The notes beneath the pieces are model-generated. The model did no database searches. It saw only the letters and a list, made by a program, of their open reading frames with translations, and had not been told where the DNA came from. A program made the translations under genes and the position numbers. Below are positions 1 to 21,762 of a DNA stretch of 24,377 nucleotides, piece by piece (position 1 is the first letter of the stretch; the number at the start of each line of letters is the position of its first letter). The stretch is from a virus. Location: positions 1 through 24,377 of the IMG/VR virus record IMGVR_UViG_3300025313_000008. One strand, 5' to 3'.

Positions 1-85
1 GTCCTTTCTTTATCTTAAGTGCCTGTATGATTTCTTCTTCTCTATGATAATGACCGCTAAACATGTAGATATCTTCTTTAACCAT
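1..85 (-). CDS. hypothetical protein, N-terminal part (runs off window)
   Basis: ATG at 85, open frame MVKEDIYMFSGHYHREEEIIQALKIKKG to window edge; 5 nt from the upstream stop. Confidence 0.5.
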   Translation of the reverse strand, partial: MVKEDIYMFSGHYHREEEIIQALKIKKG

Positions 86-90
86 TTTTT

Positions 91-264
91 TTATCCTCTA
101 AACTCCTTCTTTTCTTTTCTTTCCCATACTTTGATTTCTTTCGACATTAATTTGAGAGTTTGTTTTACATTACCGTTCATACTATGATTCATTATCATAT
201 ATTGACAAGCTCTACAATGAGATAGATGAGATTGTTGTGATGCTATTGCTACTTCGTCTTCCAT
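91..264 (-). CDS. 57-aa hypothetical protein (HCxxC)
   Basis: Manually translated MEDEVAIASQQSHLSHCRACQ...; TAATG overlap with upstream ORF. Confidence 0.6.
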   Translation of the reverse strand: MEDEVAIASQQSHLSHCRACQYMIMNHSMNGNVKQTLKLMSKEIKVWERKEKKEFRG

Positions 265-506
265 TATTTTTTCTTCCTCTTGCTATCTAATGCATATGTA
301 TTATAGGTAAATCTTATTGTTCTCTTTCCATTGTGGAATATTTCTTTTCTCCACGGTTCCATTAACACTTCTTCAATTCCATTTTCTAGAGAAAAATCAT
401 CTGGATATACTCTTTTCTTTAGCATTTTATTTATGATTGATTTTGTATAACGTAATGTGTGCCTCATTGATTTTTCGCTAGCTTCTAATTTACAAGTCAT
501 TCGCAA
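264..506 (-). CDS. hypothetical protein
   Basis: ORF track; coupled to downstream ORF. Confidence 0.55.
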   Translation of the reverse strand: MRMTCKLEASEKSMRHTLRYTKSIINKMLKKRVYPDDFSLENGIEEVLMEPWRKEIFHNGKRTIRFTYNTYALDSKRKKK

Positions 507-585
507 TACCCCATTTTTCTACAATACTCCCAATATTTTTTTATATATTGAAGATTTATTCCTATTTTGCCAATAGTGTAATATA

Positions 586-828
586 TCATTTTATAAACCT
601 CTTCCCAAATATCTTTTCTACTAACGTGGATTTTTGGTTCATTCTAAACTCCAAGTAATTTAAAAATGAATCAGTATGCATTGGTGGTTCATACATCCTT
701 CTTTGTGTTGGAGCATCTATTACATGTGCACCAAGTCTGTGTGTCCAAACTATGCCATTGCCGTCTTTTGTTGAATATGATTCTGCTATTGTGGGTCCTT
801 CTGCTAATTTCTTTTTCATTTTCCACAC
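586..828 (-). CDS. hypothetical protein
   Basis: ORF track; overlaps upstream ORF end in a co-oriented array. Confidence 0.6.
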   Translation of the reverse strand: MWKMKKKLAEGPTIAESYSTKDGNGIVWTHRLGAHVIDAPTQRRMYEPPMHTDSFLNYLEFRMNQKSTLVEKIFGKRFIK

Positions 829-1106
829 GTCTCAAAATGTATCCGTTCTTCTTCACTCATGAACTCTTTTGGTACAGTAACAATACGGGCTTCTGTTTCA
901 GTTAATACAACATAGATAAAAATCACATTTTCGTCAATATCATATTCAACTTCATCTACCTTCCAGTTGTCTGCTTGAATTGTTACCAAATCGCCTTTTC
1001 TTGGTATAAATTTTAATTTTGGTTGACCTAATATCCTACATTCCCAATGAGGAATATGCATTGAGTTGTCATCCCAATATCTAGAACGAATCTCTATTTT
1101 ACTCAA
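816..1106 (-). CDS. hypothetical protein (FIPRKGD motif, similar to 14010..14237)
   Basis: ORF track; motif IPRxGD/E...VxxVxY/H shared with ORF 14010..14237. Confidence 0.65.
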   Translation of the reverse strand: MSKIEIRSRYWDDNSMHIPHWECRILGQPKLKFIPRKGDLVTIQADNWKVDEVEYDIDENVIFIYVVLTETEARIVTVPKEFMSEEERIHFETCGK

Positions 1107-1240
1107 GTAAATCCTCTATTTATAAAATCAATTTTCTTTTGAATAAAATCTACTATTTCTTCTCTTGTCCATTTTTCACTAATTGATTGTTCAAATTCTT
1201 TTTTTAGTTCATCCAATACCATCTCAGATTCTGTTATCAT
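1103..1240 (-). CDS. 45-aa hypothetical protein
   Basis: Manual translation MITESEMVLDELKKEFEQ...; TTGA overlap with next ORF; TTTATAT box upstream. Confidence 0.55.
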   Translation of the reverse strand: MITESEMVLDELKKEFEQSISEKWTREEIVDFIQKKIDFINRGFT

Positions 1241-1272
1241 TATTATTCCTCTGTTAAATGGCTCATATAAAC

Positions 1273-1575
1273 CTAATCCACTTTATCCAATACTTCACGA
1301 ATTGTACTGGCATATTCTATATCTATTCTTTCCAAATTTGGCAATTCATCCTCAAATGTGCTTGCCCTACATATACATTGCTTATTATCGCATTGAATGG
1401 CATGATCTATTAGCCAATGAGTTATGTATCTATAACTTCTAAATAGTTCTATCTGATGTGGAGTGAGTTTTACATCGCGTACTATTTTGTTTCTTCTACT
1501 TTGTCTTTGGTTCATTTTAACACCTATGAACACGCATTGGACAACCGGCTTTATGTTCTTTACCAGTGCTACCAA
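1273..1575 (-). CDS. hypothetical protein (H/C cluster); start uncertain
   Basis: ORF track. Confidence 0.5.
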   Translation of the reverse strand: MVALVKNIKPVVQCVFIGVKMNQRQSRRNKIVRDVKLTPHQIELFRSYRYITHWLIDHAIQCDNKQCICRASTFEDELPNLERIDIEYASTIREVLDKVD

Positions 1576-1628
1576 AACAGTTACTATATTCTACCCCACA
1601 ATAATGACATATCATTGCTCTAACCATA

Positions 1629-1904
1629 TTACTTCACCATACTATCTAATACCCTACCTATAATCCTTTCGACATATTCGTTTAAATATATTTGACCATG
1701 ATAAATGTCGCCAGCAATATCGGCTTTAAACGTTACTATATCACCTTCAATCTCCTGCCTAATATTTCTAATCGCGAAGATTGTACCATTTGGAGTTTCA
1801 TGTATCTCTATATCTTTAGAATGATCTATTGTTGGTGTATAATAACCTTCTTCATTCATATAGCCATCCTCTACCATTACAGTGTCCACATACTTGTGAA
1901 TCAT
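1629..1904 (-). CDS. hypothetical acidic protein
   Basis: ORF track; start may be internal (ATG at 1859). Confidence 0.55.
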   Translation of the reverse strand: MIHKYVDTVMVEDGYMNEEGYYTPTIDHSKDIEIHETPNGTIFAIRNIRQEIEGDIVTFKADIAGDIYHGQIYLNEYVERIIGRVLDSMVK

Positions 1905-2037
1905 CTAATCTTTCTTCCCTTGTAAAATAGAATATTCCCTTACCTTTACATACTTCACACATTGGCAAAGTATACATATTGTCTAAGTAAATTTTTGGTT
2001 TTCCACCATGATACATCTCAACGTAATAATCATTCAT
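1852..2037 (-). CDS. small DnaJ-type zinc-finger protein
   Basis: Two CxxCxGxG motifs (CEVCKGKG, CGHCNGRG). Confidence 0.7.
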   Translation of the reverse strand: MNDYYVEMYHGGKPKIYLDNMYTLPMCEVCKGKGIFYFTREERLDDSQVCGHCNGRGWLYE

Positions 2038-2371
2038 ATTCCTTCATACACTCCCATTGTACATCATGCTGACATATCATTGGTTTTGGTGCTTCATCAC
2101 CCTTTACCATTAATATGAGACGCTCTGTATACATTATTTTATCACATTTCTTATCATGTTCTACTATTGCATAATAACCAGTTTTGGGTATTTTATCCCC
2201 GTTAAATACACGAATAATCTTTTCTGGAAAAAAGAATTTCCATTCCTTATAATGATTTCTTTTGAAGCATTTTTTATGATAATCATGCATTGTTATATCT
2301 TCTTCTAATCCAGCACTACATTGTTGTTGCCATGAAAATATCCTCTTTTTACAACCATTACATTTTTTCAT
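2030..2371 (-). CDS. Cys/His-rich hypothetical protein
   Basis: CNGC...HKKC and further C/H residues; ATGA overlap. Confidence 0.65.
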   Translation of the reverse strand: MKKCNGCKKRIFSWQQQCSAGLEEDITMHDYHKKCFKRNHYKEWKFFFPEKIIRVFNGDKIPKTGYYAIVEHDKKCDKIMYTERLILMVKGDEAPKPMICQHDVQWECMKEYE

Positions 2372-2481
2372 TCTTCCTCACAATATTTTTTATACTCTTT
2401 TGGATAATGTTCTATAGCCCATTGTCTTTCCTCGTCAGAACATATACATGTTATATTATCACAACCAAAACAGGGTTTCAT
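2368..2481 (-). CDS. 37-aa Cys micro-protein
   Basis: MKPCFGCDNITCIC...; ATGA coupling to 2030..2371. Confidence 0.55.
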   Translation of the reverse strand: MKPCFGCDNITCICSDEERQWAIEHYPKEYKKYCEEE

Positions 2482-2485
2482 TTTT

Positions 2486-2683
2486 TTACACCCATTTAAT
2501 TTCCCCAAGGGATGTTAACGCAATTAACCATATAAACGTAAGGAGAATACTACTAATAATGAGAAATCCTAAAAGCTCTTCTTTCTTTGCATTAAGATTT
2601 AGAATTAGGAAGATGATATGAACACCAATAAATCCTATCCAACCTAATATTGTGATAACTAAGGAAGATGTTATTTCAATCAT
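2486..2683 (-). CDS. small 2-TM membrane protein
   Basis: Two hydrophobic segments. Confidence 0.65.
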   Translation of the reverse strand: MIEITSSLVITILGWIGFIGVHIIFLILNLNAKKEELLGFLIISSILLTFIWLIALTSLGEIKWV

Positions 2684-2823
2684 TTCCCCTTACCATCCAA
2701 CCAGCAATCACAACATACCTCATGTCTATCAGGTATAGTCCATAATTTATTACAACTTGGACACTTTTTTATCATTACATTACAACCGCAATCACATACT
2801 TGTCCTTCTACCCAATCACTCAT
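2680..2823 (-). CDS. 47-aa zinc-finger micro-protein
   Basis: MSDWVEGQVCDCGC...CPSC...CCDC; ATGA overlaps at both ends. Confidence 0.6.
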   Translation of the reverse strand: MSDWVEGQVCDCGCNVMIKKCPSCNKLWTIPDRHEVCCDCWLDGKGK

Positions 2824-2972
2824 TTTCGCTCTTCCTCTATCTTCACTAATTGGTTATAAAAATCTTTAGGATCTATATTTGCCATATAACGCTTGTAATA
2901 GTCTTCTCGCCTCATTGGATTACTCATATTTACTGGAATTGGTTCATCTAGAAATTCTTCATATGTTTGCAT
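2820..2972 (-). CDS. 50-aa hypothetical protein
   Basis: Manual translation MQTYEEFLDEPIP...; fills the gap between coupled ORFs. Confidence 0.55.
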   Translation of the reverse strand: MQTYEEFLDEPIPVNMSNPMRREDYYKRYMANIDPKDFYNQLVKIEEERK

Positions 2973-2974
2973 AT

Positions 2975-3181
2975 TTACCACCCATACGGCAAAAGCTTCT
3001 TATCAAATGGCAATGGATCTGGATTTATTATATGACAAAATTCATTAAATGTTACATTCCTATCTCTTTTCATTCTACTTAATAGCGTTTCTTGTCTTTC
3101 TATTGCTTCCTCTAATTCTTTGTACTTTATCTGTAATTCTTTTACTCTTGCCTTTTCTTTCTTGGTAAATTTAGTTTTCAT
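2975..3181 (-). CDS. coiled-coil hypothetical protein
   Basis: ORF track; TAATG coupling. Confidence 0.65.
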   Translation of the reverse strand: MKTKFTKKEKARVKELQIKYKELEEAIERQETLLSRMKRDRNVTFNEFCHIINPDPLPFDKKLLPYGW

Positions 3182-3540
3182 TAATATCGCTCATTCCTTA
3201 AAACTTTTATTGCATATTCCCTGTTTAACAAATAAAGTGGTTTCTTAACTGTAGTAATGCTTCTATCCGTATGTACTTTTATCTTTGGTAATCTTTTCAT
3301 TTCTAAAACTCCCTTTCTTACTAATTGGGATATTGAAGCATGGATTGTTAGATAATTGGATGGAAATCTCATATTTACTAAATCATATATTTCTTTCTTC
3401 AAATATCTTTTATTTGGACTATCTATCAGCGTTGTGAGTATTTTTCTATGTGTATTGCTTGGAGCAAACATGTTATCAGCATATGATGTTCCTTCTCCAC
3501 TTACCCGCCTATAAGTAGATCCACATGTAGGACATCTCAT
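3181..3540 (-). CDS. CPxCG knuckle + winged-helix DNA-binding protein
   Basis: N-terminal CPTCGS; wHTH-like 'KEIYDLV...TIHASISQLVRKGVLE'. Confidence 0.6.
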   Translation of the reverse strand: MRCPTCGSTYRRVSGEGTSYADNMFAPSNTHRKILTTLIDSPNKRYLKKEIYDLVNMRFPSNYLTIHASISQLVRKGVLEMKRLPKIKVHTDRSITTVKKPLYLLNREYAIKVLRNERY

Positions 3541-3755
3541 TTCTTTTCCTCTTTCTTAATGAAATAGCTCACTTCGGGTAAATTATCTGTTTCTAATATT
3601 CCTTCAAATTTCAAGTCTCCACCTTCAAAATACATTTTTGTTATTTCACCTATTTTCTTGTCATTCTTCATTATTGGTTTTCCTTCGATATTTTCTCCTA
3701 ATTCAAATGATTCATTGCCAATTTTAATAAACCCTTTCACGTTAACCTTTTTCAT
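3537..3755 (-). CDS. hypothetical protein
   Basis: ORF track; coupled overlaps. Confidence 0.6.
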   Translation of the reverse strand: MKKVNVKGFIKIGNESFELGENIEGKPIMKNDKKIGEITKMYFEGGDLKFEGILETDNLPEVSYFIKKEEKK

Positions 3756-4141
3756 TAATGATCACTTTCCATTGTAAGTATTTGATAAACTCCCACTTTC
3801 TTCATCCACCAACTTACTGCCTGCATGAACTCAGTTTCGGATATCTCTTTATCACTATCACTTGAACGATCATTATACCATGTTTCCAGATTAACGCCAT
3901 AATATTTATCATGATAATACTTCCAATTTTCTACTAATACTTGTGAATCTCTCCAATCATCTTTCAATACACGATAAAAAGATTTCTTCTCATCATTAAA
4001 GTCATATGTTTTAAAGTATTTGCCTACCTTTCCCTGTAATGTTTTTACAACATTTTGTTCTTCCTTATCATGTTTTTCTTTCTCTCGTCTATATGTAATC
4101 TCATTAGCTTTCACTATGATTTCATCTTCTTCTGTTGTCAT
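3755..4141 (-). CDS. hypothetical protein
   Basis: ORF track; coupled overlaps. Confidence 0.7.
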   Translation of the reverse strand: MTTEEDEIIVKANEITYRREKEKHDKEEQNVVKTLQGKVGKYFKTYDFNDEKKSFYRVLKDDWRDSQVLVENWKYYHDKYYGVNLETWYNDRSSDSDKEISETEFMQAVSWWMKKVGVYQILTMESDH

Positions 4142-4350
4142 GATTTAAACCTCACATGATCTCCAGCGAAAAAACAAAGTATTGTTGCTAATATTCCAAA
4201 TACACTAATACAAGCACCTATAGCAAAAATAAAAGCATGAACTATACTAGCGGTTATACTATTGGTAGATACTATTGATACCCACATCAATGTTCCTATT
4301 ATTGTAATTATCCCCGTAAATTGATAATCCTTAATTGGTACTTCTATCAT
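4138..4350 (-). CDS. small 2-TM membrane protein
   Basis: Two hydrophobic helices; ATGA overlaps. Confidence 0.65.
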   Translation of the reverse strand: MIEVPIKDYQFTGIITIIGTLMWVSIVSTNSITASIVHAFIFAIGACISVFGILATILCFFAGDHVRFKS

Positions 4351-4670
4351 TTTTCATTATCGCCCAAATATTCTTTAAGTATTTCAAACAATTTTAATGC
4401 TTCTTCTATCTCATAAAGAGATAATCGATATAAATCCTGATGTACATATCTTTTTGCTCTCTTTAAACGTTTTTGCATATCACCTATTGGATCTTTAAAT
4501 TCATCCAACCATAATTGAGTTAATGATTTTCCTTGTACATTATGATATTCTGCGTGATCTGTTGCAACATATATTATTGAACCTTTTTTTAACTTAATTT
4601 TTCCTATTTTGGGAATAGACAACAATGAATTTCTTGATATTCTTGAATGTGATATTTTCTTCTTTACCAT
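4347..4670 (-). CDS. mini-protein containing a paralogous copy of the terminase ATPase Walker-B segment
   Basis: GKIKLKKGSIIYVATDHAEYHNVQGKSLTQLWLDE aligns ungapped with TerL GEISLKNGSVMYMVTDHNQYGHVEGKSLDHVMLDE (19/35 identical); own TATA (TATATATT, 4701-4694). Confidence 0.8.
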   Translation of the reverse strand: MVKKKISHSRISRNSLLSIPKIGKIKLKKGSIIYVATDHAEYHNVQGKSLTQLWLDEFKDPIGDMQKRLKRAKRYVHQDLYRLSLYEIEEALKLFEILKEYLGDNEK

Positions 4671-4708
4671 TTCATTTATTGAGTTGGATAGATAATATAT
4701 ACTAATGC

Positions 4709-4850
4709 TTTAGTATCATAAGACCACCGATCTTTATATACTATTGTGGTAATTTGATACTAAAATGTTAATGGGGTATTTGTATTATGGCACCCCTACC
4801 ACAACGAGAATTCCGAAACAGCGTTTCTATTCTGCTATTTCTTCACCCAA
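4709..4850 (-). ncRNA. candidate pseudoknotted small RNA
   Basis: Stems GAAATAGC/GCTGTTTC, GGGGTG/TACCCC, GTTGTGGTA/TACCACAAT crossing TTTAGTATCA/TGATACTAAA; G-U wobbles only on the minus strand; TATA at 4878-4871; no ORF. Confidence 0.6.
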
Positions 4851-4878: not shown

Positions 4879-5058
4879 CTATACTTCTATGTAATCTGCT
4901 ATTTTGTTTTGTGACATTCCACACTTTACGCATCTCTTATCAATGAAATAATGTGTTTTACTTCCATGTTTTCTCTTTTCACACGGCGCTAGTTCACCAC
5001 AATATTTACATGTAATACTTGGCGGATTATCTGAACAGAATAAATGTGTGTGATCCAA
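4879..5058 (-). CDS. 59-aa zinc-finger micro-protein (TTG start)
   Basis: H..C..CKYCG..C...H...H...CVKCG; TTAATAT box ~24 nt upstream. Confidence 0.6.
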   Translation of the reverse strand: MDHTHLFCSDNPPSITCKYCGELAPCEKRKHGSKTHYFIDKRCVKCGMSQNKIADYIEV

Positions 5059-5085: not shown

Positions 5086-6924
5086 TTAACCATTGTTCCC
5101 CACAGATACCCACGAATACGATTGGTGAATATCTAAACATTTTTTCGCCAAAATACAACTCACTAAACTGTCGGGAGGATGTGAAAATTTTTTCGACTTT
5201 TTTTGAGTGGCGTCTGCACTTACATCTTCGTCTGGCTTTTCAGGTAAATCAACTCTGACTAACTTAGTCCAGTCATTTAGAATAAAGTCTAATTTATCTC
5301 TACTATCCGGATGATTTGGTATCATAAATCTAGGTCTTGTATAGTCTTCTACAAGCGGATTATCTGGATGTGGCACATATTCTCCTAAAAAGTCTACAAA
5401 CTCCTGTATCATTGTGCTTTTATCTAGTGTTACTTTTGGTACTTCATCACCATGTTCGTCTATCTTTCTTGTGAACTCTAATAGTGGTTTTGTTTCATCG
5501 CCTATTGTTCTTGAACCATAGAATTTATTTTCTCCTACACCCGCATATAATTTACCAGTTAATCTATTGGCACTACCGCTTTGTATTGCCTTTATTTGGT
5601 TTGCTCCGTATCCAAGGTCTCCCATACCTATATCACATTTTGCTACTTTAAACATCCAATTAATATATTCGGCTTGATCCATTTGATTTTCTCCGGGTCT
5701 GGGCTCAAGGAGTGCTAATTGCACTCTATTGTAGTTTGTTTGTACTTTATCACCTTCTTTTATTCTCCATACTATAAAGATAGCGATAACAGTTTGTGAT
5801 GGGCTTCCAGAACCAAAATCAACTCCCATACAAATAGCTACTTGTTTTCCATATGTATCCTTGATATCTCCTATTTGCTCCGGCGTTAATAACTGCAGAT
5901 AAGGATATGGGTTCATACAAATTTCTATCATTTCTCGTGTAATTGGTCTTCTTTCTGCTTTGTAAAAACCACCCATTACATGTGATGTATAAAGTGAACG
6001 ACTCATGTGTTTTCTACGCCATTCTATCGAATATTGTGGATCTACATCATAGTCATTAATTGCTGATTCTATTGTAAGTGGAATAGTTGGAAATATTGTT
6101 TGTGGTAAATAATAGCCATGCCAGTGTACTGCCCTTGGGTTTGTTACTTCCCAATGTCCGCGCAATACTTCTTTCAAGTATTCGCCTATAATGAGTCCAT
6201 GCTTTTCTCTCTTTAGGTGGTCTTTGACTAATCCAAATTGTAGTTTTTCTCTCCAATTAAGGTCATCATATATCCACTTTCGTTGATCTGTTCTACGCCA
6301 TAATTCCTCATATGGTGATCCACTTTCTCCACCAATTCCTAATACAGTTACCTTACCCATTGTTTGTGACATTGTTAATGTTACCCTATCAAAGTTTTGT
6401 ATATCTTGGTATTGGGCTTCATCTAACATTACATGATCCAATGATTTACCTTCTACATGTCCATATTGGTTGTGGTCTGTTACCATATACATTACTGATC
6501 CGTTCTTTAGTGATATTTCCCCGACGTTACCAAGCTTATGTCTTGGAAATAGCTTTAAAATTGGATTTGGTTCAAACGTACCATATTGTAATTTCTGCCT
6601 TGAATAACCCGATCTAGATACATCGTCATATGTTACATAACATGATTGAAATCCTGCAAATGCAGTCGTTTCAAATGCTAGAATATCAGTAGTGTAAGTA
6701 GATTTGAATATCTGTCTTCCTCCAATAATCATCTTATTTGGGTTATTATCCCTATAAATGTCCTCCCAGAAAGGAGCAACTAAAAATGACCGAGGTCTGC
6801 CTTCTACAAGTGGTCTTGCTTCTTCTATCCACCTTAGCGGTTCTGTAGGTAAAACGGGTAAATCACTTATTTGTTTGATCTTTTCCGCTAGGATCTTCTC
6901 TATATCATCCATATCATAAGGCAT
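5086..6924 (-). CDS. terL: terminase large subunit
   Basis: 612 aa; Walker A-like GGRQIFKST, Walker B VMLDEAQ, RNase H-fold nuclease MGVDFGSG...GDLGYG...HPPD. Confidence 0.9.
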   Translation of the reverse strand: MPYDMDDIEKILAEKIKQISDLPVLPTEPLRWIEEARPLVEGRPRSFLVAPFWEDIYRDNNPNKMIIGGRQIFKSTYTTDILAFETTAFAGFQSCYVTYDDVSRSGYSRQKLQYGTFEPNPILKLFPRHKLGNVGEISLKNGSVMYMVTDHNQYGHVEGKSLDHVMLDEAQYQDIQNFDRVTLTMSQTMGKVTVLGIGGESGSPYEELWRRTDQRKWIYDDLNWREKLQFGLVKDHLKREKHGLIIGEYLKEVLRGHWEVTNPRAVHWHGYYLPQTIFPTIPLTIESAINDYDVDPQYSIEWRRKHMSRSLYTSHVMGGFYKAERRPITREMIEICMNPYPYLQLLTPEQIGDIKDTYGKQVAICMGVDFGSGSPSQTVIAIFIVWRIKEGDKVQTNYNRVQLALLEPRPGENQMDQAEYINWMFKVAKCDIGMGDLGYGANQIKAIQSGSANRLTGKLYAGVGENKFYGSRTIGDETKPLLEFTRKIDEHGDEVPKVTLDKSTMIQEFVDFLGEYVPHPDNPLVEDYTRPRFMIPNHPDSRDKLDFILNDWTKLVRVDLPEKPDEDVSADATQKKSKKFSHPPDSLVSCILAKKCLDIHQSYSWVSVGNNG

Positions 6925-7562
6925 TATTCTTCACCTTTTTCCTCTTCTTCTTTTTCTTGTAGTTTGTTGATAATGTTCTGCAGTTCGGGTTTATCATAGG
7001 TTTTAGTAGTGTTTTCTTTAATAAATTGTTTTAGTGACCATACCGTTTCTGTCTTATTGGCTAATTGTGTGTATTCCTTGGTTGCTTGCATTAAAATTCG
7101 TTCATTATTCTGTTTAACTGAATGATAAATTGATTCATTTTGTAGCCTTAATCTCATTACATCGGCTTCGGTTGGATCATTTTCTCCTTCTGTTGATATT
7201 GCATTAATTTCTACATTTCTAGCATTATAATTAGATTCGGCTATTGCAATCTCTTCACTACATCTTGTTCCAATTTTTTTAAATTCTTGTAATGCTTCAT
7301 GATGATCTACTATAAATTCGCCTGTTAATACCCTATTTTCAATGAAATCTCTACCCTCTTCGCGTATTCGCTGTATATCCCTTCCTATTGTTGCTTCAGA
7401 TATATTTAGATATTCATAGTTGTTATCCTTTAACCACTTTGATATAGATACCGCTTTCTTATATCCAGCATCTTGTAATTGCTTTACTAATGAAATACGC
7501 CTATTGATTTTTTCTTCATCTGTGAGGTTATTTCCATCATTGCCCGTGCCTGTTTCCATCAT
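6924..7562 (-). CDS. putative terminase small subunit (N-terminal HTH + coiled coil)
   Basis: HTH-like 'ISEATIGRDIQRIR'; TAATG-coupled directly upstream of terL. Confidence 0.65.
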   Translation of the reverse strand: MMETGTGNDGNNLTDEEKINRRISLVKQLQDAGYKKAVSISKWLKDNNYEYLNISEATIGRDIQRIREEGRDFIENRVLTGEFIVDHHEALQEFKKIGTRCSEEIAIAESNYNARNVEINAISTEGENDPTEADVMRLRLQNESIYHSVKQNNERILMQATKEYTQLANKTETVWSLKQFIKENTTKTYDKPELQNIINKLQEKEEEEKGEE

Positions 7563-7838
7563 TAAACCATCACTATGTATTTACCATATAAGCATATATT
7601 ACCTTTTAGGCGTCACATGGGGTATTTTTTTGTGAATTATCTATTCATTAGCTTAGCCTAATTGTTATTAAGTAATTGCCGGTTTCTTAATAAAAAGTGT
7701 ATCGGAAGCAATCATGAATACCTGATTCTTTGCCAAAAACCTGATTGTTTAACAATAAAGTTATAGCCTATAGAGTTATTGCTTTAGTCTAGACTTTTAT
7801 GGACTTGTCGGCTTTGTCTTAGACAGATATCCAAAAAA

Positions 7839-7864
7839 CGTTGATCTACTGAACAAGATCAACG
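7839..7864 (-). terminator. hairpin + T6 terminator after the Zn-ribbon ORF
   Basis: CGTTGATCT-8nt-AGATCAACG followed by TTTTTT on the minus strand. Confidence 0.55.
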
Positions 7865-8017
7865 AGCACTGAATCTGTAGTATTTACACCTTCTACATTG
7901 TCTTAGTTCTCTTTCAATGAATTCCTTCTTACTACCTTTGAAGCTCTTTCTTATGTATAATTGCTCTAGTGTTATTTCCACTATTCCCCCGCAAATTGGG
8001 CATACTCTCGTAATCAT
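7859..8017 (-). CDS. 52-aa zinc-ribbon protein
   Basis: MITRVCPICGG...CRRCKY; TTTATATA box at ~8073-8066. Confidence 0.7.
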   Translation of the reverse strand: MITRVCPICGGIVEITLEQLYIRKSFKGSKKEFIERELRQCRRCKYYRFSAR

Positions 8018-8078
8018 GTGTTACACTATAAGAGTATTTGGATAATGTAGTTATGTTATACTAGTATATAAAGGATGT

Positions 8079-8183
8079 ATAGTGAATCCATTCCTCTCAT
8101 TGGGATAAATCCTTTGCCAACTCTTTCGAAGTAGTGTCTTTCGATTCACAGTTGAAGTAAGAGTCTATGGAATTACTCACTAT
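8079..8183 (-). ncRNA. candidate ~105-nt three-way-junction small RNA with a K-turn-like motif
   Basis: ATAGTGAG/TTCACTAT, TCCAT/ATGGA, CTCTTA/TGAGAG, CAAC/GTTG, TCGAA/TTCGA, GGAT/ATCC; TATA TTTATAAT at 8215-8208. Confidence 0.6.
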
Positions 8184-8232
8184 CGTTTATTATTATGCAT
8201 GTTCTCTATTATAAACTTTGTTATGATGTTAT

Positions 8233-8310
8233 ATCTGGAAAATACCCCGTTTTTCCAGATTTAAGTTCATTATGGTAAAAAACTATAATATTATGGTAAA
8301 TTACTATAAT
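8233..8310. repeat. 10-bp inverted repeat plus 2x 21-bp tandem quasi-palindromes
   Basis: atctggaaaa..ttttccagat (8233-8260); attatggtaaaaaactataat / attatggtaaattactataat (8269-8310). Confidence 0.7.
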
Positions 8311-8327
8311 AGAAAAAAAGAAAAAAA
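8311..8327 (-). terminator. archaeal oligo-T terminator
   Basis: T7-C-T7 directly after the stop of 8331..8507. Confidence 0.6.
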
Positions 8328-8330
8328 GGC

Positions 8331-8507
8331 TTAGCCGAATATACGTTTACCTAGTGTAAAGCCAAGTCCTACTAATTGTGCTCCAATGAGTACAAACAAT
8401 GTATTAGCATCGCCTATTACTCCTGTAGCAGTTCCAATTACTCCTAACAAGGTTGTTGAACCTATTAGGGCTAATGGTACGTTGTCATTTGTTCCGTTTG
8501 TTGCCAT
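8331..8507 (-). CDS. 58-aa hydrophobic 2-TM protein (missed by the ORF track)
   Basis: MATNGTNDNVPLALIGSTTLLGVIGTATGVIGDANTLFVLIGAQLVGLGFTLGKRIFG; TTTAAA box upstream, T-tract downstream. Confidence 0.8.
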   Translation of the reverse strand: MATNGTNDNVPLALIGSTTLLGVIGTATGVIGDANTLFVLIGAQLVGLGFTLGKRIFG

Positions 8508-8535
8508 TGTGAGTGTGTGTAATAGGAAGGGTAAT

Positions 8536-8769
8536 TTAAAGCTTTCTTATCACTGGTCTATGTAAAGCGTCATTTGCTATGTGTGTGTGCTTCAATACGC
8601 TAGCTTGGGCTTCTGTTTCTGTTTGCCATGATTTTCCACAATGATGAATACACCTATCATTTTTGTTATTATGACAATGAATAGCACAACCGCTTAGAAA
8701 ATTAGAACAGTCTTTTTTATCTTCAAAGTGCCTACAACTTACTTCATAATTCTTTTCTGCCATTAACAT
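8536..8769 (-). CDS. Cys/His-rich metal-binding protein
   Basis: Multiple C/H residues; TTTATATT box upstream. Confidence 0.6.
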   Translation of the reverse strand: MLMAEKNYEVSCRHFEDKKDCSNFLSGCAIHCHNNKNDRCIHHCGKSWQTETEAQASVLKHTHIANDALHRPVIRKL

Positions 8770-8793
8770 GGTTGGTTTTTACTATAATATAAA

Positions 8794-9954
8794 CTATTTT
8801 ACTGCTTCTTTAATCTTCTGAAATAATCCTTCTTCATGTGTTCCTTTAGCATAAACAACATATATCTTTGATAAAGTCTTACCTTCTGCCTTTCTTACCA
8901 CACGCCCGATACGTTGAACTATTGTGGTTTCATTCTTATTACTGGCGACTATGATTCCATGTCGTATATTTGGAACATCATAACCTAAATCAAGTGTATG
9001 AACTGTACCTATTACATGAAATGTTTTACCAAAGTTTTCAAGTATTTCTTTTCTCTTTTTCTTTCCCGTTTTTGCTGTAATGAATTCAAAACAATCACCC
9101 ATTATAGATTTCAATAATTCTAATGTTTGTATTCGCTCACAAAATACTATTGTTTGCTCATTGTTGAAGCTTTTTACCAATTCATATACTTTGTTTGCTT
9201 TTTCATGATTGTATTCCATAAGAAGCTTTCTTGCTTGAACTGCTTTGAACCACATTCCTGCCTCTCTTACACGTCCAAGCATTCTTTGTATATCTCGTGG
9301 ATTTGAAGTACCCATTGCATCGCTTAAATTCTTAATTGTGTTGCTGTATTGCGTATAAGCAATTTGACTTTCAGGTGAAAGACTAATGCTGTGATCTTCA
9401 ACTACAACTGGTGAAAGATAATCATTGCTAATAGCATCATTTAAATCTATTTCGCCTAAAACTGGACATGTTCGTAGAATTGTGCCAAATCTTTCATAGT
9501 TGAATTTATCCAAAGTAGCGGTTAAACATAACATATGTAAACCTTGATCATCAGCAATCTTCATTATTTCGCTAAATTTCTCAGCATAATCAGAAGCCAG
9601 ATGAACTTCATCGAAAACAATAAAGTCAAACTCATTGATAAGATGTAATTCATTGCTAATACTTTGATAAGTTGAAACGATTATTGATTGTTCTAGTTCT
9701 TTTTCAAGTGAATAATACGAACCAGCGACTAAACCATAGCCCTTTATTCGTTCAGTAGTTTGCTCTACCAATGTTATTCTAGGAGCAAGAAACAGTATTT
9801 TGGTTTCTTTTCGTTCTTGTAGGTATTGTTCCATGATTCCTATTGCTATTTCAGTTTTACCAGTTCCTGTTGCAAATAAGAAGGTTCCCCTTTTATTAGC
9901 ATTAAAGAATTTGTCTTTTGCATCAGTTTGATAGTCACGAAGGTTTACACTCAT
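8794..9954 (-). CDS. superfamily II (XPB/Rad25-like) DExH helicase
   Basis: LRDYQ, ATGTGKT, DEVH, TAT, LDLGYDVP, QRIGRVVR motifs. Confidence 0.92.
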   Translation of the reverse strand: MSVNLRDYQTDAKDKFFNANKRGTFLFATGTGKTEIAIGIMEQYLQERKETKILFLAPRITLVEQTTERIKGYGLVAGSYYSLEKELEQSIIVSTYQSISNELHLINEFDFIVFDEVHLASDYAEKFSEIMKIADDQGLHMLCLTATLDKFNYERFGTILRTCPVLGEIDLNDAISNDYLSPVVVEDHSISLSPESQIAYTQYSNTIKNLSDAMGTSNPRDIQRMLGRVREAGMWFKAVQARKLLMEYNHEKANKVYELVKSFNNEQTIVFCERIQTLELLKSIMGDCFEFITAKTGKKKRKEILENFGKTFHVIGTVHTLDLGYDVPNIRHGIIVASNKNETTIVQRIGRVVRKAEGKTLSKIYVVYAKGTHEEGLFQKIKEAVK

Positions 9955-10199
9955 TTGTTTTTCGCCTCATAAAGTCTTATTGCTTCACAATGTTTACAAT
10001 CCTTACTCTTAGAAAACTTCCAACCAACACATTTACAATAAAGATCAAAACTATATTTCGATTGATCTGCTCGTTCAACTTCATATGAATTATCCCCTTT
10101 AGTTGAACTTACCAACCAATGATTTGAATCTAATTCTTGAATTAAATCTTTTTCAACTAAATCTTGTGCTTGTTTCGTTTGACTTTCGCTTAATGTCAT
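9951..10199 (-). CDS. SWIM zinc-finger protein
   Basis: YEV...CKC..W......CKHC SWIM signature; TTTATATA box 24 nt upstream. Confidence 0.85.
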   Translation of the reverse strand: MTLSESQTKQAQDLVEKDLIQELDSNHWLVSSTKGDNSYEVERADQSKYSFDLYCKCVGWKFSKSKDCKHCEAIRLYEAKNK

Positions 10200-10254
10200 A
10201 CTATACCTTACCCCGTAGCGTATATAAACCCTTGTTTGTGTAAATTAACAACAA

Positions 10255-10851
10255 TCACCATATTTCTCTTAATGTATATAAATAAATATATTTTCCTTTA
10301 GTAGTTTCATATTTGGCTTCTCCATTTTTTAATGCTTTTTTTAATCTAATGGCATATGGCTTTAGTTTTCCATTGTAATATGATCTTATAGCTTTGTCAT
10401 GATATCTTCTTCCATTCCACATTATAACTCGGCTTTTTGCAGTTGTTCCTAAATTCTTAAAATGTGTTGCTTTGTAGATAGTGCCTTGATGATTAAATTC
10501 TGGATCTGCATATGATACAACTTTCTTTATGCCTGTATTATTCTTGAGCCATCTTAAACATTTGCCTATGAAGAATGATTCTGTGTTTTTAGGCGTATCA
10601 TCTATACAACAAAGTCTCCGTAGCTCAATAAGGTCTTCTTTCTTATTCACATACTTTTTCCAAGTATTAGCCATAGCTAACCAACCAAATACCATAGCTC
10701 CTATTAAATTACCATTACATTCTAACTTGAAACAATAAGTTGAAATTACACCGTTTATGTTTTTTGAATAATGCCATTTTTCTACAAAGTCCCGTATTTC
10801 ATTACGTTCACAAGGCGACACTACCATATTGCTAATACTTATTTTACTCAT
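10255..10851 (-). CDS. Mom-family (GNAT-fold) DNA adenine modification protein
   Basis: WHYS, ELRRL, PKNTESFFIG, VSYAD...HQGTIYKATHF motifs typical of Mu Mom-like proteins. Confidence 0.8.
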   Translation of the reverse strand: MSKISISNMVVSPCERNEIRDFVEKWHYSKNINGVISTYCFKLECNGNLIGAMVFGWLAMANTWKKYVNKKEDLIELRRLCCIDDTPKNTESFFIGKCLRWLKNNTGIKKVVSYADPEFNHQGTIYKATHFKNLGTTAKSRVIMWNGRRYHDKAIRSYYNGKLKPYAIRLKKALKNGEAKYETTKGKYIYLYTLREIW

Positions 10852-11005
10852 GTAATTTCCTATCTAATTCAAAACATTCACATGGTTCATTGATAATGTC
10901 AAATGAACAATCTTCTTGAACGCCTTTTATTTGTATTGTGTGTTGTGGCATGATTCTCATACAATCCTTATGTCTTTCTTTTATACAAAACCAACATTTA
11001 GTCAT
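10844..11005 (-). CDS. 53-aa Cys/His micro-protein
   Basis: MTKCWFCIKERHKDC...DCSFD...PCEC. Confidence 0.65.
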   Translation of the reverse strand: MTKCWFCIKERHKDCMRIMPQHTIQIKGVQEDCSFDIINEPCECFELDRKLHE

Positions 11006-11067
11006 TTGGAACTATCACCCAATACGATGTACCATATCTACTAATTCTCTTATATTTCCATGGAAAT

Positions 11068-11313
11068 TTAAACTCCAATTATATATCCACCTTTCTTTAA
11101 TGTAATGTTTAAACCCAATGCTACTTTTTCTGATGCTATCAATTCATTGCCATTCTTATGAGCCCATCTTACTATCCATTCTTCTGAATTGAGATCATCT
11201 GTTAATATCAATATTTCGTCATTATTTTCCATTTTACGCATTTCTATTTCTATTTTAAATAAGTTCTCCGGCACAAAAAGTCCACGCAGATCTAGTTTTG
11301 TTTGTTCACTCAT
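11068..11313 (-). CDS. TusA/SirA-fold protein lacking the persulfide Cys
   Basis: LDLRGLFVPEN vs consensus LDxRGLxCPxP; ILTDD...I.RW...G.EL pattern; probable start at ATG 11313 (ATGA overlap). Confidence 0.75.
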   Translation of the reverse strand: MSEQTKLDLRGLFVPENLFKIEIEMRKMENNDEILILTDDLNSEEWIVRWAHKNGNELIASEKVALGLNITLKKGGYIIGV

Positions 11314-11954
11314 GCTACTTTCCACTCTTTTTTCTTTGATATTTGTTGACAATGGGGGCATATTAACTTTGTTTCATTTTTAATGTAGCTTTTACGGAGT
11401 ATTCTTGAATAACTAAGGTTTTTCAAATCTGTATAGGCTTTCTCTATACTTAGTTTTCCATTTCTTACTTTGCCTTGTATTTCATTATTAGCATGTTCCA
11501 TTATGTATACCGACTTTGATACTGTTAAACCATTTACTCCTATTGTTTTTCCTATTATATCACCTACATTTCCTCTTTTTATACCGTCGTAATCTTCACC
11601 GCCATAATGTCTTTTTCGTGCAAGTTCTTTTTCTATAACATACATTTGATACATTAACTCTACGCGTTGAAATGCATTTAAATGTCTTCTTCTTACATTG
11701 CAATTTATTACATATCTTTTTTCTTCTTCTTTTGTTGCAAATTCTTGTATTCTATATTTTACTTCTATTCCCAATTCTTGACAAATTTCATATCTTGTAT
11801 ATCCATCTAGTATGAATCCATCTCTATTGATTACAATCGGATCATGTTGTCCATGTAGCATTATATCTTCTTTTAATGCCATACGTTCTTCTTTTGTAGG
11901 TCTTGGAACCAAGACTAAATATTCTTCTTTTACTTTAATTATTATTTTTACCAT
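11310..11954 (-). CDS. ParB/Srx N-terminal domain protein with HTH and C-terminal CPHC
   Basis: LKEDI..HGQHDPIVI....ILDGYTRY; NVRRRHL. Confidence 0.85.
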   Translation of the reverse strand: MVKIIIKVKEEYLVLVPRPTKEERMALKEDIMLHGQHDPIVINRDGFILDGYTRYEICQELGIEVKYRIQEFATKEEEKRYVINCNVRRRHLNAFQRVELMYQMYVIEKELARKRHYGGEDYDGIKRGNVGDIIGKTIGVNGLTVSKSVYIMEHANNEIQGKVRNGKLSIEKAYTDLKNLSYSRILRKSYIKNETKLICPHCQQISKKKEWKVA

Positions 11955-12210
11955 TTCCCTTTAACCTCTTTCTAATCATTGAGTATAATATAAACGATAC
12001 TTGAATAATTGATACTGTTTCAACTAAATCAACACCATAAAGAAGCCAATCTAATACAGGATTAACTCTAGAAACATGACCCCATTGTAAGTAAAGATCA
12101 AGATTCCATATCATATGAGGTATTTGAATTATCTGAATTATTGCAATAATGATTACTGAACCAAGTATCTTATTTTCGTACCAGTTCCAGAATCTAGTCC
12201 AACCGTTCAA
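11935..12210 (-). CDS. membrane protein
   Basis: Two hydrophobic segments. Confidence 0.7.
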   Translation of the reverse strand: MNGWTRFWNWYENKILGSVIIIAIIQIIQIPHMIWNLDLYLQWGHVSRVNPVLDWLLYGVDLVETVSIIQVSFILYSMIRKRLKGNGKNNN

Positions 12211-12658
12211 CCCAAACCTTGTCCAGTGGATCTTTCCACCACATATTTTGTTTTGTAAAGTCTGTAATTAATTTGTTATTCTTGTATAATTTCATACTTG
12301 CACCACTCATTTTATGTATTTCTGCACTTACCTTATCTGTACCATTTAATACATTCTTTCCTACAATCATTAAAACAATAACAACTTCATCGTCATATCC
12401 ACGCCATCCACATGATAAATATAATTGAATTTCATTTTCCTCTTCGCCCGGATTTGGACTAGTAGCATCCTTATAGACTTCACAATATTTGTATGGAAAT
12501 ATTTCAGAATTCCAATCAGGTGGAAGAGTCACTACTTTTCCTTTATAAAGTTCAACTAGTTTCCATCCATCAAGATGTTTTTTTATTCTTGGATCTATCT
12601 TATCCAAGTCTGCTTGTGTAAATTTCTCTTTAAATATAGAGAATGTTTGTTTAGTCAT
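12194..12658 (-). CDS. hypothetical protein
   Basis: ORF track, 154 aa. Confidence 0.75.
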   Translation of the reverse strand: MTKQTFSIFKEKFTQADLDKIDPRIKKHLDGWKLVELYKGKVVTLPPDWNSEIFPYKYCEVYKDATSPNPGEEENEIQLYLSCGWRGYDDEVVIVLMIVGKNVLNGTDKVSAEIHKMSGASMKLYKNNKLITDFTKQNMWWKDPLDKVWVERLD

Positions 12659-14401: not shown

Positions 14402-14710
14402 TTATCTACCATTATTACAATTTGGGTGTCTAGTTATGTGTTCATCGCAGTAATATTCGATGCATTCGTTACAGACATTTATTGCTCCTCGATTCCATTC
14501 TTTTTCACAAACTTTACAATAGACTTCTTTGATATGGTGTCTTGCACCTAATACATCATCTCTTGTTAGTTCTTCGGCTTTCTTTAATTGTCGTTTTTTA
14601 GTTAAATCTTCTCCTTTAAATCTTGGTTTGATGTTCCATTCATCTATTTCCCAATCTCGCCAGTCTTCACTACCCATTACTTGTTTAATGGATTGCTGAT
14701 ATTTAACCAT
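14402..14710 (-). CDS. AN1/B-box-like zinc-finger protein
   Basis: CKVC...CNEC...YCDEH...HPNC. Confidence 0.7.
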   Translation of the reverse strand: MVKYQQSIKQVMGSEDWRDWEIDEWNIKPRFKGEDLTKKRQLKKAEELTRDDVLGARHHIKEVYCKVCEKEWNRGAINVCNECIEYYCDEHITRHPNCNNGR

Positions 14711-15135
14711 TCTAATCTGTTCTGTGCTTGTGGTCTTTTTGATTTCACTAATGTAAACGCATCTTCTAATGTAAGTCCTAATCTAGTATGCATATACCAT
14801 GTCATAGCCAATGGACTTCGTTCCATACCAGCTCCACAGTGAACCAATAATCTTTCTTTTGCATCTATATGGTTTTGAATAATATGTGCTACTACGTCTA
14901 GTTGCACGGGCAAAGCTCTATCAACATATTCATGAATTAGATAATCCGTATCTTTTCCATCTTTATCTTTCATCATTATTTTTTCAAATCTTAATGTTAG
15001 AATAGGAATATGTAATATACTTAATGGTAATCTTTCAGGTCTAGTTTCTAAAACACATACTGCATTACCATCCCATACTAAAGCGTCTTCTAGATCACCT
15101 ATCCAGATGTCATGAATGATTTGATTTGCAGTCAT
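14677..15135 (-). CDS. dual-specificity (Cys-based) phosphatase
   Basis: LLVHCGAGMERS catalytic CX5R loop; 'DAFTLVKSKRP'. Confidence 0.9.
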   Translation of the reverse strand: MTANQIIHDIWIGDLEDALVWDGNAVCVLETRPERLPLSILHIPILTLRFEKIMMKDKDGKDTDYLIHEYVDRALPVQLDVVAHIIQNHIDAKERLLVHCGAGMERSPLAMTWYMHTRLGLTLEDAFTLVKSKRPQAQNRLEWLNISNPLNK

Positions 15136-17263: not shown

Positions 17264-17271
17264 TTTATGCT

Positions 17272-17342
17272 ATCGGTTTAGTTCAACGGTAGAACATTGG
17301 GCTCATACCCCAAGAACCATGGTTCGACTCCATGTTCCGGTA
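17272..17342 (+). tRNA. tRNA-Met(CAT), initiator-type, with two U-U mismatches in the acceptor stem
   Basis: Cloverleaf: GTTC/GAAC, TTGGG-CTCATAC-CCCAA, CATGG-TTCGACT-CCATG; A1:U72 and three G-C anticodon-stem pairs; no encoded CCA. Confidence 0.88.
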
Positions 17343-17465
17343 TTACTTTATAAAACCATATCTCTTTAAACAATCCACACAAATTACCCCAAGAGCCGAT
17401 GCCTTTTCTTTTCTACATAGTCTACATGGTAAATCATAATCTGTTCTTTTGCCACTATCTTCCAA
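17343..17465 (-). CDS. 40-aa CxxC..CxxC micro-protein (TTG start)
   Basis: PCRLCRK...ICVDCLKR; TTAATAT box upstream; stop abuts the tRNA 3' end. Confidence 0.55.
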   Translation of the reverse strand: MEDSGKRTDYDLPCRLCRKEKASALGVICVDCLKRYGFIK

Positions 17466-20778: not shown

Positions 20779-21762
20779 TTACTTGTATATAATTGTAATG
20801 TTATGGTTTTTATGATCTGTTACTTCAGGCTTAAGAATTACTTTTCTTCCACAATTCTCACATTTAAAATTGAGAGAGGATAATTTTATTTTATTGTGTT
20901 CACATAAGTCTTCTATATCTTTCCAAAAAGTGTCATCGTATTTCAATTTTACTTCTTTTAAATCAAATTCCTCTAAAAATTCTTTAAATCTGATTTTACT
21001 AACATCCGCGTTCATTACACTTTGTACTTTTTGTTTTATTACAACTTCAGGTAATGGTGGAAATACCAATGTTTGATTAAAATGACTTAGATGATATAAT
21101 AGTTCATCTTCCTTTAAACCAAAACTATGTCTCATTGCTACTCCAAGCGTATACACACTGTAATCTCTTTCTCCTTCTTTTACACCTTTTAAAATTTCAA
21201 CAACTCCTTTCTTTATACGTTCTGGATTGAACCCATGATTCGATAAACTATTAATGAAGCCATCCAAATCTATATCCTGTATATCCAATGTGCTTGAAAT
21301 TATTTTATATTCTTTACCAGTCTCTGGATTGATTGAACCCGGAATTAATACGTAAGTTCCTTGTGATTGAATATCTATGCGTTGACCTTTATCATTTTTT
21401 AACCTCAAACTTGTTTCAGGTAATTTTCCCTTTGGTTTAACACATACATGATATCCTTTTCCAGTTTCAACTATCAATGTTTCTTTTTTTCTTTTTTCCC
21501 AGTCATCAAAAACTTTTGATAACTCACGATCATCAAGGTCTATAACTACTAAATTACCCGATGACGTACCACAAATAACTGCTCCATTTTGTCCTTCTTT
21601 AATTTCCATATTACATTTTTCAGTTTGAAATATCTTCCAACCGGGCTTACCAGTTTGTGGGTTTATTGGCATATTTGTTTCATCTGGAAGTTTAGACTTT
21701 GGTTTAAGTGGTATTACATTTAGTCCTTTTTCCCTGTAAAGTTTTACAAACCCCTGTATCAT
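20779..21762 (-). CDS. bifunctional primase-polymerase (Prim-Pol + PriCT-1-like) with C-terminal Zn motif
   Basis: GLNVIPL...SKLP, LVVIDLD, ETGKGYH, IDIQSQGTYVLIPGS, EGERD, PPLPE. Confidence 0.9.
   Translation of the reverse strand: MIQGFVKLYREKGLNVIPLKPKSKLPDETNMPINPQTGKPGWKIFQTEKCNMEIKEGQNGAVICGTSSGNLVVIDLDDRELSKVFDDWEKRKKETLIVETGKGYHVCVKPKGKLPETSLRLKNDKGQRIDIQSQGTYVLIPGSINPETGKEYKIISSTLDIQDIDLDGFINSLSNHGFNPERIKKGVVEILKGVKEGERDYSVYTLGVAMRHSFGLKEDELLYHLSHFNQTLVFPPLPEVVIKQKVQSVMNADVSKIRFKEFLEEFDLKEVKLKYDDTFWKDIEDLCEHNKIKLSSLNFKCENCGRKVILKPEVTDHKNHNITIIYK

Follow-up and report, generated by a model that had tools for sequence, protein, structure and literature searches.

The window, by which we mean the whole stretch of DNA analysed here (24,377 nucleotides), is the first 24.4 kb of a 98.4-kb IMG/VR record, has a G+C content of about 32% and carries nearly all of its genes on the minus strand. 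The subject of this study is a small gene that follows the terminase genes of this virus (the mini-gene; its product is P0001). The features at the locus are as follows:

4138-4350 (-): predicted small membrane protein of 70 amino acids, translationally coupled to the mini-gene (ATGA stop/start overlap)
4347-4670 (-): mini-gene, 107 amino acids (P0001), with a TerL-derived core and a helical hairpin tail (ORF list and translation)
4365-4490 (-): helical hairpin tail of the mini-protein (helices 61-77 and 81-102), not TerL-derived (AlphaFold2)
4500-4604 (-): conserved core, mini-protein residues 23-57 (gapless alignment to TerL 135-169)
4500-4664 (-): TerL-homologous part, mini-protein residues 3-57 (BLASTP)
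4692-4772 (-): conserved non-coding element of about 80 nt, promoter/operator-like (recognised by its conservation; putative promoter)
5086-6924 (-): large terminase TerL, 612 amino acids, parent of the mini-gene fragment (phrog_675, E 5e-26)
6418-6522 (-): TerL residues 135-169, the parental segment of the mini-gene core
6924-7562 (-): putative small terminase, 212 amino acids (position and a weak HTH match)

TerL has 572 homologues at E<=1e-10, some of which carry Pfam Terminase_6N. Its Walker A motif (G-G-R-Q-I-F-K-S-T) occupies residues 68-76 and its Walker B motif (M-L-D-E) residues 166-169. The stop codon of the 212-aa gene overlaps the TerL start, and its product matches HTH_11 at E 0.001, which is under the Pfam cut-off; judged by its position and this weak HTH, it is probably TerS. 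In relatives of a second type (type B, the window being type A), an unrelated 147-aa gene (L021:5500-5943) stands at the small-terminase position although TerL is 75% identical. The exchange between these non-homologous genes looks like a swap of the TerS module. The long spacer between TerL and the mini-gene contains a zinc-ribbon-like small ORF with two CxxC pairs (4879-5058, minus strand), which matches phrog_17317 weakly (E 1e-4) and is missing from type-B relatives, where the spacer is about 200 nt shorter.

The terminase genes (within 5086-12658, minus strand) stand among replication and DNA-modification genes, away from the structural module. The first three of the following genes belong to the terminase neighbourhood, and the others lie further along the window:

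8794-9954 (-): SF2 helicase
10255-10851 (-): Mom-like protein
11310-11954 (-): ParB-like protein
14677-15135 (-): dual-specificity phosphatase-like gene
20779-21762 (-): PrimPol-type primase
22168-22998 (-): matrixin-like metallopeptidase gene

A tRNA-Met gene (17271-17343; ARAGORN, Rfam 55 bits) lies on the plus strand, which has almost no protein genes.

When TerL relatives were sought in species genomes, 22 of the 23 loci belonged to Nitrosopumilaceae/Nitrososphaerota (identity 41-54%), and some of the Nitrososphaerota loci sit within contigs of 0.45-1.9 Mb. Because the TerL relatives are almost confined to Nitrososphaerota genomes, the host of this tailed virus is very probably an ammonia-oxidising archaeon. 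The 98-kb record has no tyrosine integrase, and a prophage-style superinfection-immunity reading of the mini-gene therefore finds no support in the lifestyle of the virus.

The end of the TerL gene lies 415 nt upstream of the mini-gene. Residues 23-57 of the mini-protein align without gaps to TerL 135-169, with 19 of 35 amino acids and 71 of 105 nucleotides identical, and different codons encode 9 of the 19 identical residues. Among 200 shuffled versions of the mini-protein, the best 35-residue identity to TerL averaged 9.1 and reached a maximum of 12. The first-pass annotation had drawn attention to this match between the codons at 4500-4604 and 6418-6522 and to the different synonymous codons used for conserved residues, and its coordinates and counts were exact. 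The homology is not limited to the core. BLASTP aligned mini-protein residues 3-57 to TerL 109-169 (46.6 bits, E 2e-11, 23 of 61 identities, one 6-residue gap), and an HMM of the mini-protein family matched the virus's own TerL with E 7e-18. Since the homology extends N-terminally of the core, the basic N-terminus that had been described as unrelated to TerL is partly a degenerate TerL remnant, whereas the description of the other flank as a helical C-terminus without TerL similarity holds.

The core contains a beta-hairpin (K-x-G-S turn; N-G-S), T-D-H, the following strand, a G-K-S loop and the Walker B strand up to L-D-E. This L-D-E (mini-protein residues 55-57) aligns with TerL 167-169 and with the I-D-E of T4 gp17, and the family profile aligns with gp17 221-257, a stretch which closes at that Walker B motif. 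Searches of PDB sequences, first with TerL and also with a profile of 24 TerL sequences, gave no usable match, so the structural position of the segment is taken from the gp17 profile alignment and textbook motif knowledge. The assignment of the retained piece to hairpin, G-K-S loop, Walker-B strand and catalytic glutamate follows established knowledge of T4 gp17. TerL homology stops at residue 57-59, after which P0001 is a helical hairpin without TerL similarity. There is no Walker A P-loop and no C-terminal nuclease domain in P0001, as had been noted before, and the C-motif and lid subdomain are missing too. The mini-gene is single-copy in the 98-kb genome. A role at the DNA level, as a recombination substrate or pac mimic, was rejected because the mini-gene and TerL copies are 68% identical and share only short runs.

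Relatives of the mini-protein were collected by an exhaustive HMMER search of 1.84 billion representatives and a subsequent profile search. HMMER/phmmer returned small proteins of 98-154 aa that match over the core and the C-terminal tail (E 2e-13 to 9e-5). The profile search added two more, one with a Zn-ribbon tail instead of the helical hairpin. In total there are about ten relatives, all intact (90-154 aa) and all with the TerL-like core up to Walker B, and most have the helical hairpin tail. We define the family as P0001, P0004-8, P0010, P0012, P0013 and P0016, with P0017 as a subfamily that has the Zn-ribbon tail. The family motif, which P0001 matches, is G-x-I-x-L-K-N-G-S-x-I-Y-x-x-T-D-x-x-x-Y-x-x-V-x-G-K-S...L-D-E, followed within about 10 residues by the helical hairpin (A..Y..AL..I..AL). 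Alignment columns I25, S31, Y42, V45, G47, D56, E57 and L85 are invariant and K48 is nearly so; the Walker B D and E are found in 11 of 11 members. The exact P0001 protein occurs on at least 21 contigs.

No family model for the mini-protein or its relatives was found in Pfam or PHROGs. Pfam DUF5886 (PF19233) scored 20.1 bits against a gathering threshold of 36.5 (E 8.6e-4) with P0001 only, one of 11 members, and was taken as a chance match. A tblastn search of 50,697 GenBank phage records gave no match to the family, and the 10-kb surroundings of the 23 Nitrososphaerota-associated TerL loci contain no member. This rarity, together with the absence from most relatives, indicates that the mini-protein family is not a core packaging component. 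The mini-gene adjoins TerL in the clade of the window; in L015, L020 and L053 the family member lies away from TerL, in arrays of small ORFs or after a family-B DNA polymerase.

Some members come from other settings. The sister subfamily P0017/P0145 (90 aa; L053:6001-6273 and L055:3001-3273) has the same TerL-like core with a CxxC...CxxC zinc-ribbon tail and belongs to a different virus type, in which a coupled 98-aa gene always precedes it and two divergently oriented P-loop-like genes (154 and 182 aa) lie nearby. P0012 (NCBI MGH7901605.1) is encoded on a 1.7-kb contig binned to a Thermodesulfobacteriota MAG, a placement that is probably a binning artefact of viral DNA.

The longer relatives reveal how the family arose. 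The four longest members begin with M-[T]-R-K-[KQ]-F-K, aligned to the Walker A motif of TerL (M-R-K-K-F-K-T-T with G-R-Q-I-F-K-S-T), and run on through Y-D-D and S-K-Q-K-L, both alignable with TerL. What remains of Walker A in these long forms is only R-x-x-F-K-[TK]-T, the preceding strand and the glycines being gone. The basic N-terminus of P0001 aligns with their degenerate region between Walker A and the core. Because the longer relatives start inside the Walker A motif, the alignments show that the family began when a stretch of TerL reaching from Walker A to Walker B was duplicated, and that a tail was added to it.

Selection on the gene was estimated throughout by the Nei-Gojobori method. 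In five deep comparisons the omega of the core (residues 21-57) was 0.23-0.46, as compared with 0.16 for TerL and 0.07 for the helicase. The Zn-ribbon subfamily pair, which is not saturated (dS 0.42), gave 0.20. The mini-protein core is thus, by these estimates, under purifying selection. The first-pass annotation had named the lack of intact homologues or a dN/dS near 1 as the signature of a decaying duplicate, and neither was found: core omega is 0.2-0.46, and the frame is intact in all of the approximately ten diverged members and in every one of 40+ contigs. A functionless remnant of a partial TerL duplication could still be argued from the whole-gene omega of 0.4-0.8 in deep comparisons, from a tail omega that lies near 1 (0.34-1.39, with synonymous sites of the tail near saturation) and from the two variants of P0013, in which 4 of 5 differences are non-synonymous. 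However, several columns are invariant, the helical hairpin is retained and confidently predicted, the promoter-like element is conserved, and where the mini-gene is absent from near-identical viruses a homologous allele, rather than a deletion, takes its place. Decay is thereby largely refuted and we regard it as highly improbable. On the same comparisons, ORF 4347-4670 is a genuine gene for a 107-aa micro-protein derived by partial duplication of the ATPase domain of the lineage's own TerL, and the data back the earlier suggestion of a domesticated fragment through the homology, the intact homologues and the core omega.

Core and tail have different histories. Compared in pairs, the members average about 54% identity in the core and about 29% in the tail (range 17-72%). 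By their tails the members form the pairs P0004/5, P0006/10, P0007/12 and P0008/16, whereas core similarity groups them differently, and three of the four tail pairs consist of one long and one short form. Either the N-terminal part has been lost repeatedly or core and tail have recombined, as far as the alignments can tell. Because long and short forms have three tail types in common, the core together with the tail appears to be the unit selected.

The mini-gene is the first gene after the element at 4692-4772 and heads a mosaic operon of small genes. The element contains an imperfect palindrome (TAGTATCA..ACCAC / GGTGG..TGATACTA) enclosing a TATA-like TATATAAAG, and a second, proximal TATA-like box, TATATATTAT, is centred about 27 nt before the mini-gene ATG. 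All four pairings of a TerL type (A or B) with a mini allele (P0001 or P0013) have the element in nearly invariant form; it is 90% identical in the more distant virus L024 and is interrupted by an inserted ORF in L015. Across diverged viruses it is kept far better than the flanking genes and forms the left edge of the mosaic array. From these features it looks like a promoter with an operator. The element overlaps the 3' part of a putative 'pseudoknotted RNA' flagged at 4709-4850. The earlier proposal that the mini-gene has its own TATA box and leads a coupled operon is in keeping with the proximal box and with the ATGA overlap, the promoter role being a putative one.

Downstream, positions 1-4700 (minus strand) hold about 20 tightly packed, overlapping small ORFs without family matches, including ten after the mini-gene that have no Pfam or PHROGs match. 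Directly behind the mini-gene, the window, L005, L022 and L024 encode homologous versions of the 70-aa membrane protein (39-75% identity), and L015, L018 and L019 do not. The protein thus recurs behind three different mini alleles, in the closest clade only. Upstream neighbours are unrelated between viruses, and no other partner gene is conserved.

This setting raises the question of whether the TerL-derived hairpin and strand were exapted as a scaffold, in a small protein with a non-packaging target such as a host takeover factor working with the coupled membrane protein. All neighbours are uncharacterised small ORFs of an accessory array, translational coupling to the 70-aa membrane protein recurs in four contexts, the gene lies away from TerL in other viruses, and in the P0017 subfamily the core is joined to a wholly different Zn-ribbon tail. 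However, it is exactly the functional TerL residues (the G of the G-K-S loop and the Walker-B D-E, with K nearly always) that are kept over more than 50% divergence, which is unexpected for a pure scaffold. We consider a scaffold role rather doubtful.

The mini-gene behaves as an allelic cassette. Between 12661 and about 4710 the window is matched at 99-100% identity by L022 and L023. Past that point these contigs carry P0013 in place of P0001, and the match resumes from about 4330. P0013 has 98 aa and shares about 36% amino acid and 55% nucleotide identity with P0001 (dS about 0.8). Viruses with a TerL that is only 78% identical in nucleotides carry P0001 with one synonymous change, inside a 99.7% identical block at about 4303-4775. 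Each of the two TerL types is found with each of the two mini alleles, so there is no sign of co-adaptation to the resident TerL, and both alleles occur within the same sample. The downstream small-gene array is patchy as well, with whole-gene insertions and deletions and blocks of less than 80% identity between near-identical viruses, and a second near-identical block (1598-2217, 99%) is shared by type A and type B viruses that are otherwise 86% identical. The mini-gene as a single divergent hotspot was ruled out by this second block and the mosaicism of the whole array. Taken together, the allelic cassettes, their free association with either TerL type and the shuffled cores and tails favour, on these sequence comparisons, a role in conflict or as an accessory over a housekeeping one.

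Structure prediction separated the two parts of the protein. AlphaFold2 with the family alignment placed helices 61-77 and 81-102 of P0001 at pLDDT 90-97, and the TerL-like core at about 55. In the long form P0006, with TerL segments included in the alignment, the hairpin was again confident while the TerL-like part remained below 50, and there is accordingly no evidence that the long forms are compact mini-ATPases. The ESM Atlas's own model of the mini-protein was equally poor, and the look-alikes in that atlas were uninformative (feature scores of 0.80 or less; structure matches were generic helical bundles). The low confidence of the core fits a segment that folds on a partner, although a shallow alignment could equally explain it. 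One complex prediction of full-length TerL with the mini-protein scored 0.00, which counts neither for nor against binding.

The reading that we rank first is that the mini-protein mimics TerL and competes for a partner of the packaging machinery. We propose it tentatively, as one possible mechanism. The invariant residues are functional ones of TerL and yet no ATPase can form, which suggests mimicry of a TerL element toward its binder. The TerL-like segment, apparently not self-folding, would probably be a molecular mimic that competes for the binder of TerL 109-169, most likely the neighbouring TerL subunit, TerS or the portal. DNA packaging would then be braked or disturbed, either in the virus itself early in infection or in co-infecting relatives, and the tail might be the variable part through which the protein oligomerises or holds a partner. 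Fragments of paralogues usually act on the partners of the parent protein. We place the packaging machinery first for this reason and because terminase-binding packaging inhibitors are established. The significant homology to TerL, the approximately ten intact diverged members with core and tail, the purifying selection on the core, the proximity of the mini-gene to TerL in the window clade and the confident modelling of the tail only, in short and long forms, as for a segment folding on its partner, are all consistent with this proposal. There are precedents in Gpi (PMC11417361) and in TerI, whose locus has the same architecture as the one described here (10.1101/2025.02.27.640495). On the other hand, the poor core models may stem from the shallow alignment, the family is missing from most relatives, the 23 Nitrososphaerota-associated TerL loci included, and its gene is not adjacent to TerL in L015, L020 and L053. 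The free combination of mini alleles and TerL types shows no co-adaptation, and interference with packaging gives no account of how the virus spares its own identical TerL core.

The same swapping of alleles could reflect an arms race with the host, in which the mini-protein is a decoy or antagonist of an immune sensor that recognises terminase. In such a mechanism it would be made early from its own promoter, and its unfolded TerL-like strands would occupy an Avs-type STAND or Upx-type sensor without productive activation. We rank this second and do not think it very likely. Alleles of about 36% identity exchange in a hypervariable accessory operon between 99-100% identical genomes of the same sample, whatever the TerL type, and such swapping, with the shuffling of core and tail, is a pattern commonly shown by conflict genes. 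No family member varies in the G or in the Walker-B D-E, and K is nearly constant, although an ATPase cannot form, and the core is predicted to be unable to fold alone. Avs2 and Avs3 read active-site features of the terminase, and for Upx, which occurs in archaeal phyla and for which the ATPase domain suffices, threading of unfolded ATPase beta-strands by beta-augmentation has been modelled (PMC13601566). T4 Vs.8, a paralogue resembling the TerL ATPase, also engages EcAvs2 (PMC13601566). However, beta-augmentation is sequence-independent and leaves the conserved residues unexplained, while Avs interfaces are large and fold-shaped and far exceed a 35-residue segment. Moreover, the T4 protein Vs.8 activates Avs2 rather than blocking it (PMC13601566), and we found no published terminase decoy. 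The first-pass annotation had raised both an immune decoy and a dominant-negative modulator of the motor, and the exchange of alleles, their occurrence with either TerL type and the core/tail shuffling do not choose between a decoy and interference with the motor.

A more specific version, which we hold to be distinctly unlikely, is that the mini-protein is a virus-made 'terminase epitope': unfolded TerL strands with a Walker-B site, made before TerL itself, would jam Upx-like or Avs-like sensors, and archaeal viruses that circulate together would exchange alleles and tails so as to match the sensor variants of their hosts. If true, this would be the first decoy against prokaryotic pattern-recognition immunity, and in archaea.

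Whichever partner is involved, about 35 conserved residues around Walker B and a helical handle represent a minimal selected element, in which the G and D-E are kept, K nearly always, and the rest has been trimmed repeatedly. The mini-protein could serve as a small, tractable reagent for finding the binder of the Walker-B segment, be it a TerL subunit, TerS, the portal or a host sensor. To our knowledge, almost nothing is known about virus conflicts in ammonia-oxidising archaea. Its alleles are exchanged as cassettes downstream of a single conserved promoter-like element in viruses that occur together, which makes the mini-gene a candidate marker of conflict between viruses, or between virus and host, in these organisms.

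Several known systems resemble the mini-gene in part. Eukaryotic microProteins such as Id and LITTLE ZIPPER are small paralogues with one interaction piece that act by forming non-productive complexes. This is the mechanism proposed here for the mini-protein, but they belong to another domain of life and to other folds, so that the likeness is an analogy only. In T4, shorter terminase-derived polypeptides (gp17'A, gp17'B and gp17'') are annotated beside full-length TerL. These products of internal initiation are in-frame N-terminal truncations that keep the C-terminal part, whereas the mini-gene is a separate locus encoding a mid-ATPase fragment.

PLE Gpi and SaPI Ppi, both small proteins, bind a subunit of the terminase and block packaging. 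Gpi, from a Vibrio cholerae satellite, binds TerL, and its alleles are unusually variable (PMC11417361). Unlike the mini-protein, Gpi and Ppi are satellite-encoded, are not homologous to TerL and have an experimentally demonstrated function. The TERi locus of Listeria comK prophages is similar in its layout: a highly conserved promoter is followed by alternating unrelated or diverged genes, including that for TerI, a 65-aa protein that binds TerS (bioRxiv 10.1101/2025.02.27.640495). Both loci encode a small mobile-element protein tied to the terminase, and here too a conserved element of about 80 nt precedes alternative alleles. However, TerI was not derived from a terminase, its phage is a temperate one of bacteria, and two self-immunity genes accompany it, none comparable having been identified here.

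The closest counterpart is Vs.8 of T4 (219 aa, AF158101), likewise a separate phage gene homologous to the phage's own TerL ATPase domain, with no nuclease domain and uncharacterised. Vs.8 reportedly has Walker A and B motifs in common with gp17, and its toxicity in combination with EcAvs2 is reported as well (PMC13601566). It comprises the whole ATPase core with both Walker motifs, whereas in P0001 only about 55 residues remain, the last of them at Walker B, and a helical hairpin has been added. An hhalign comparison of the mini-protein family with Vs.8 detected no similarity (probability 0.14%, E 0.42). By these comparisons the origin of the family is independent of Vs.8 and lies inside a TerL lineage that is almost confined to Nitrososphaerota genomes. 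Stand-alone copies of the terminase ATPase domain recur in phages, in T4 Vs.8 and others, and we know of none with an assigned role. Against these stand-alone paralogues, what is new in the mini-gene is the reduction to a sub-domain fragment, the new tail, the behaviour as an allelic cassette and the Nitrososphaerota-linked TerL lineage.
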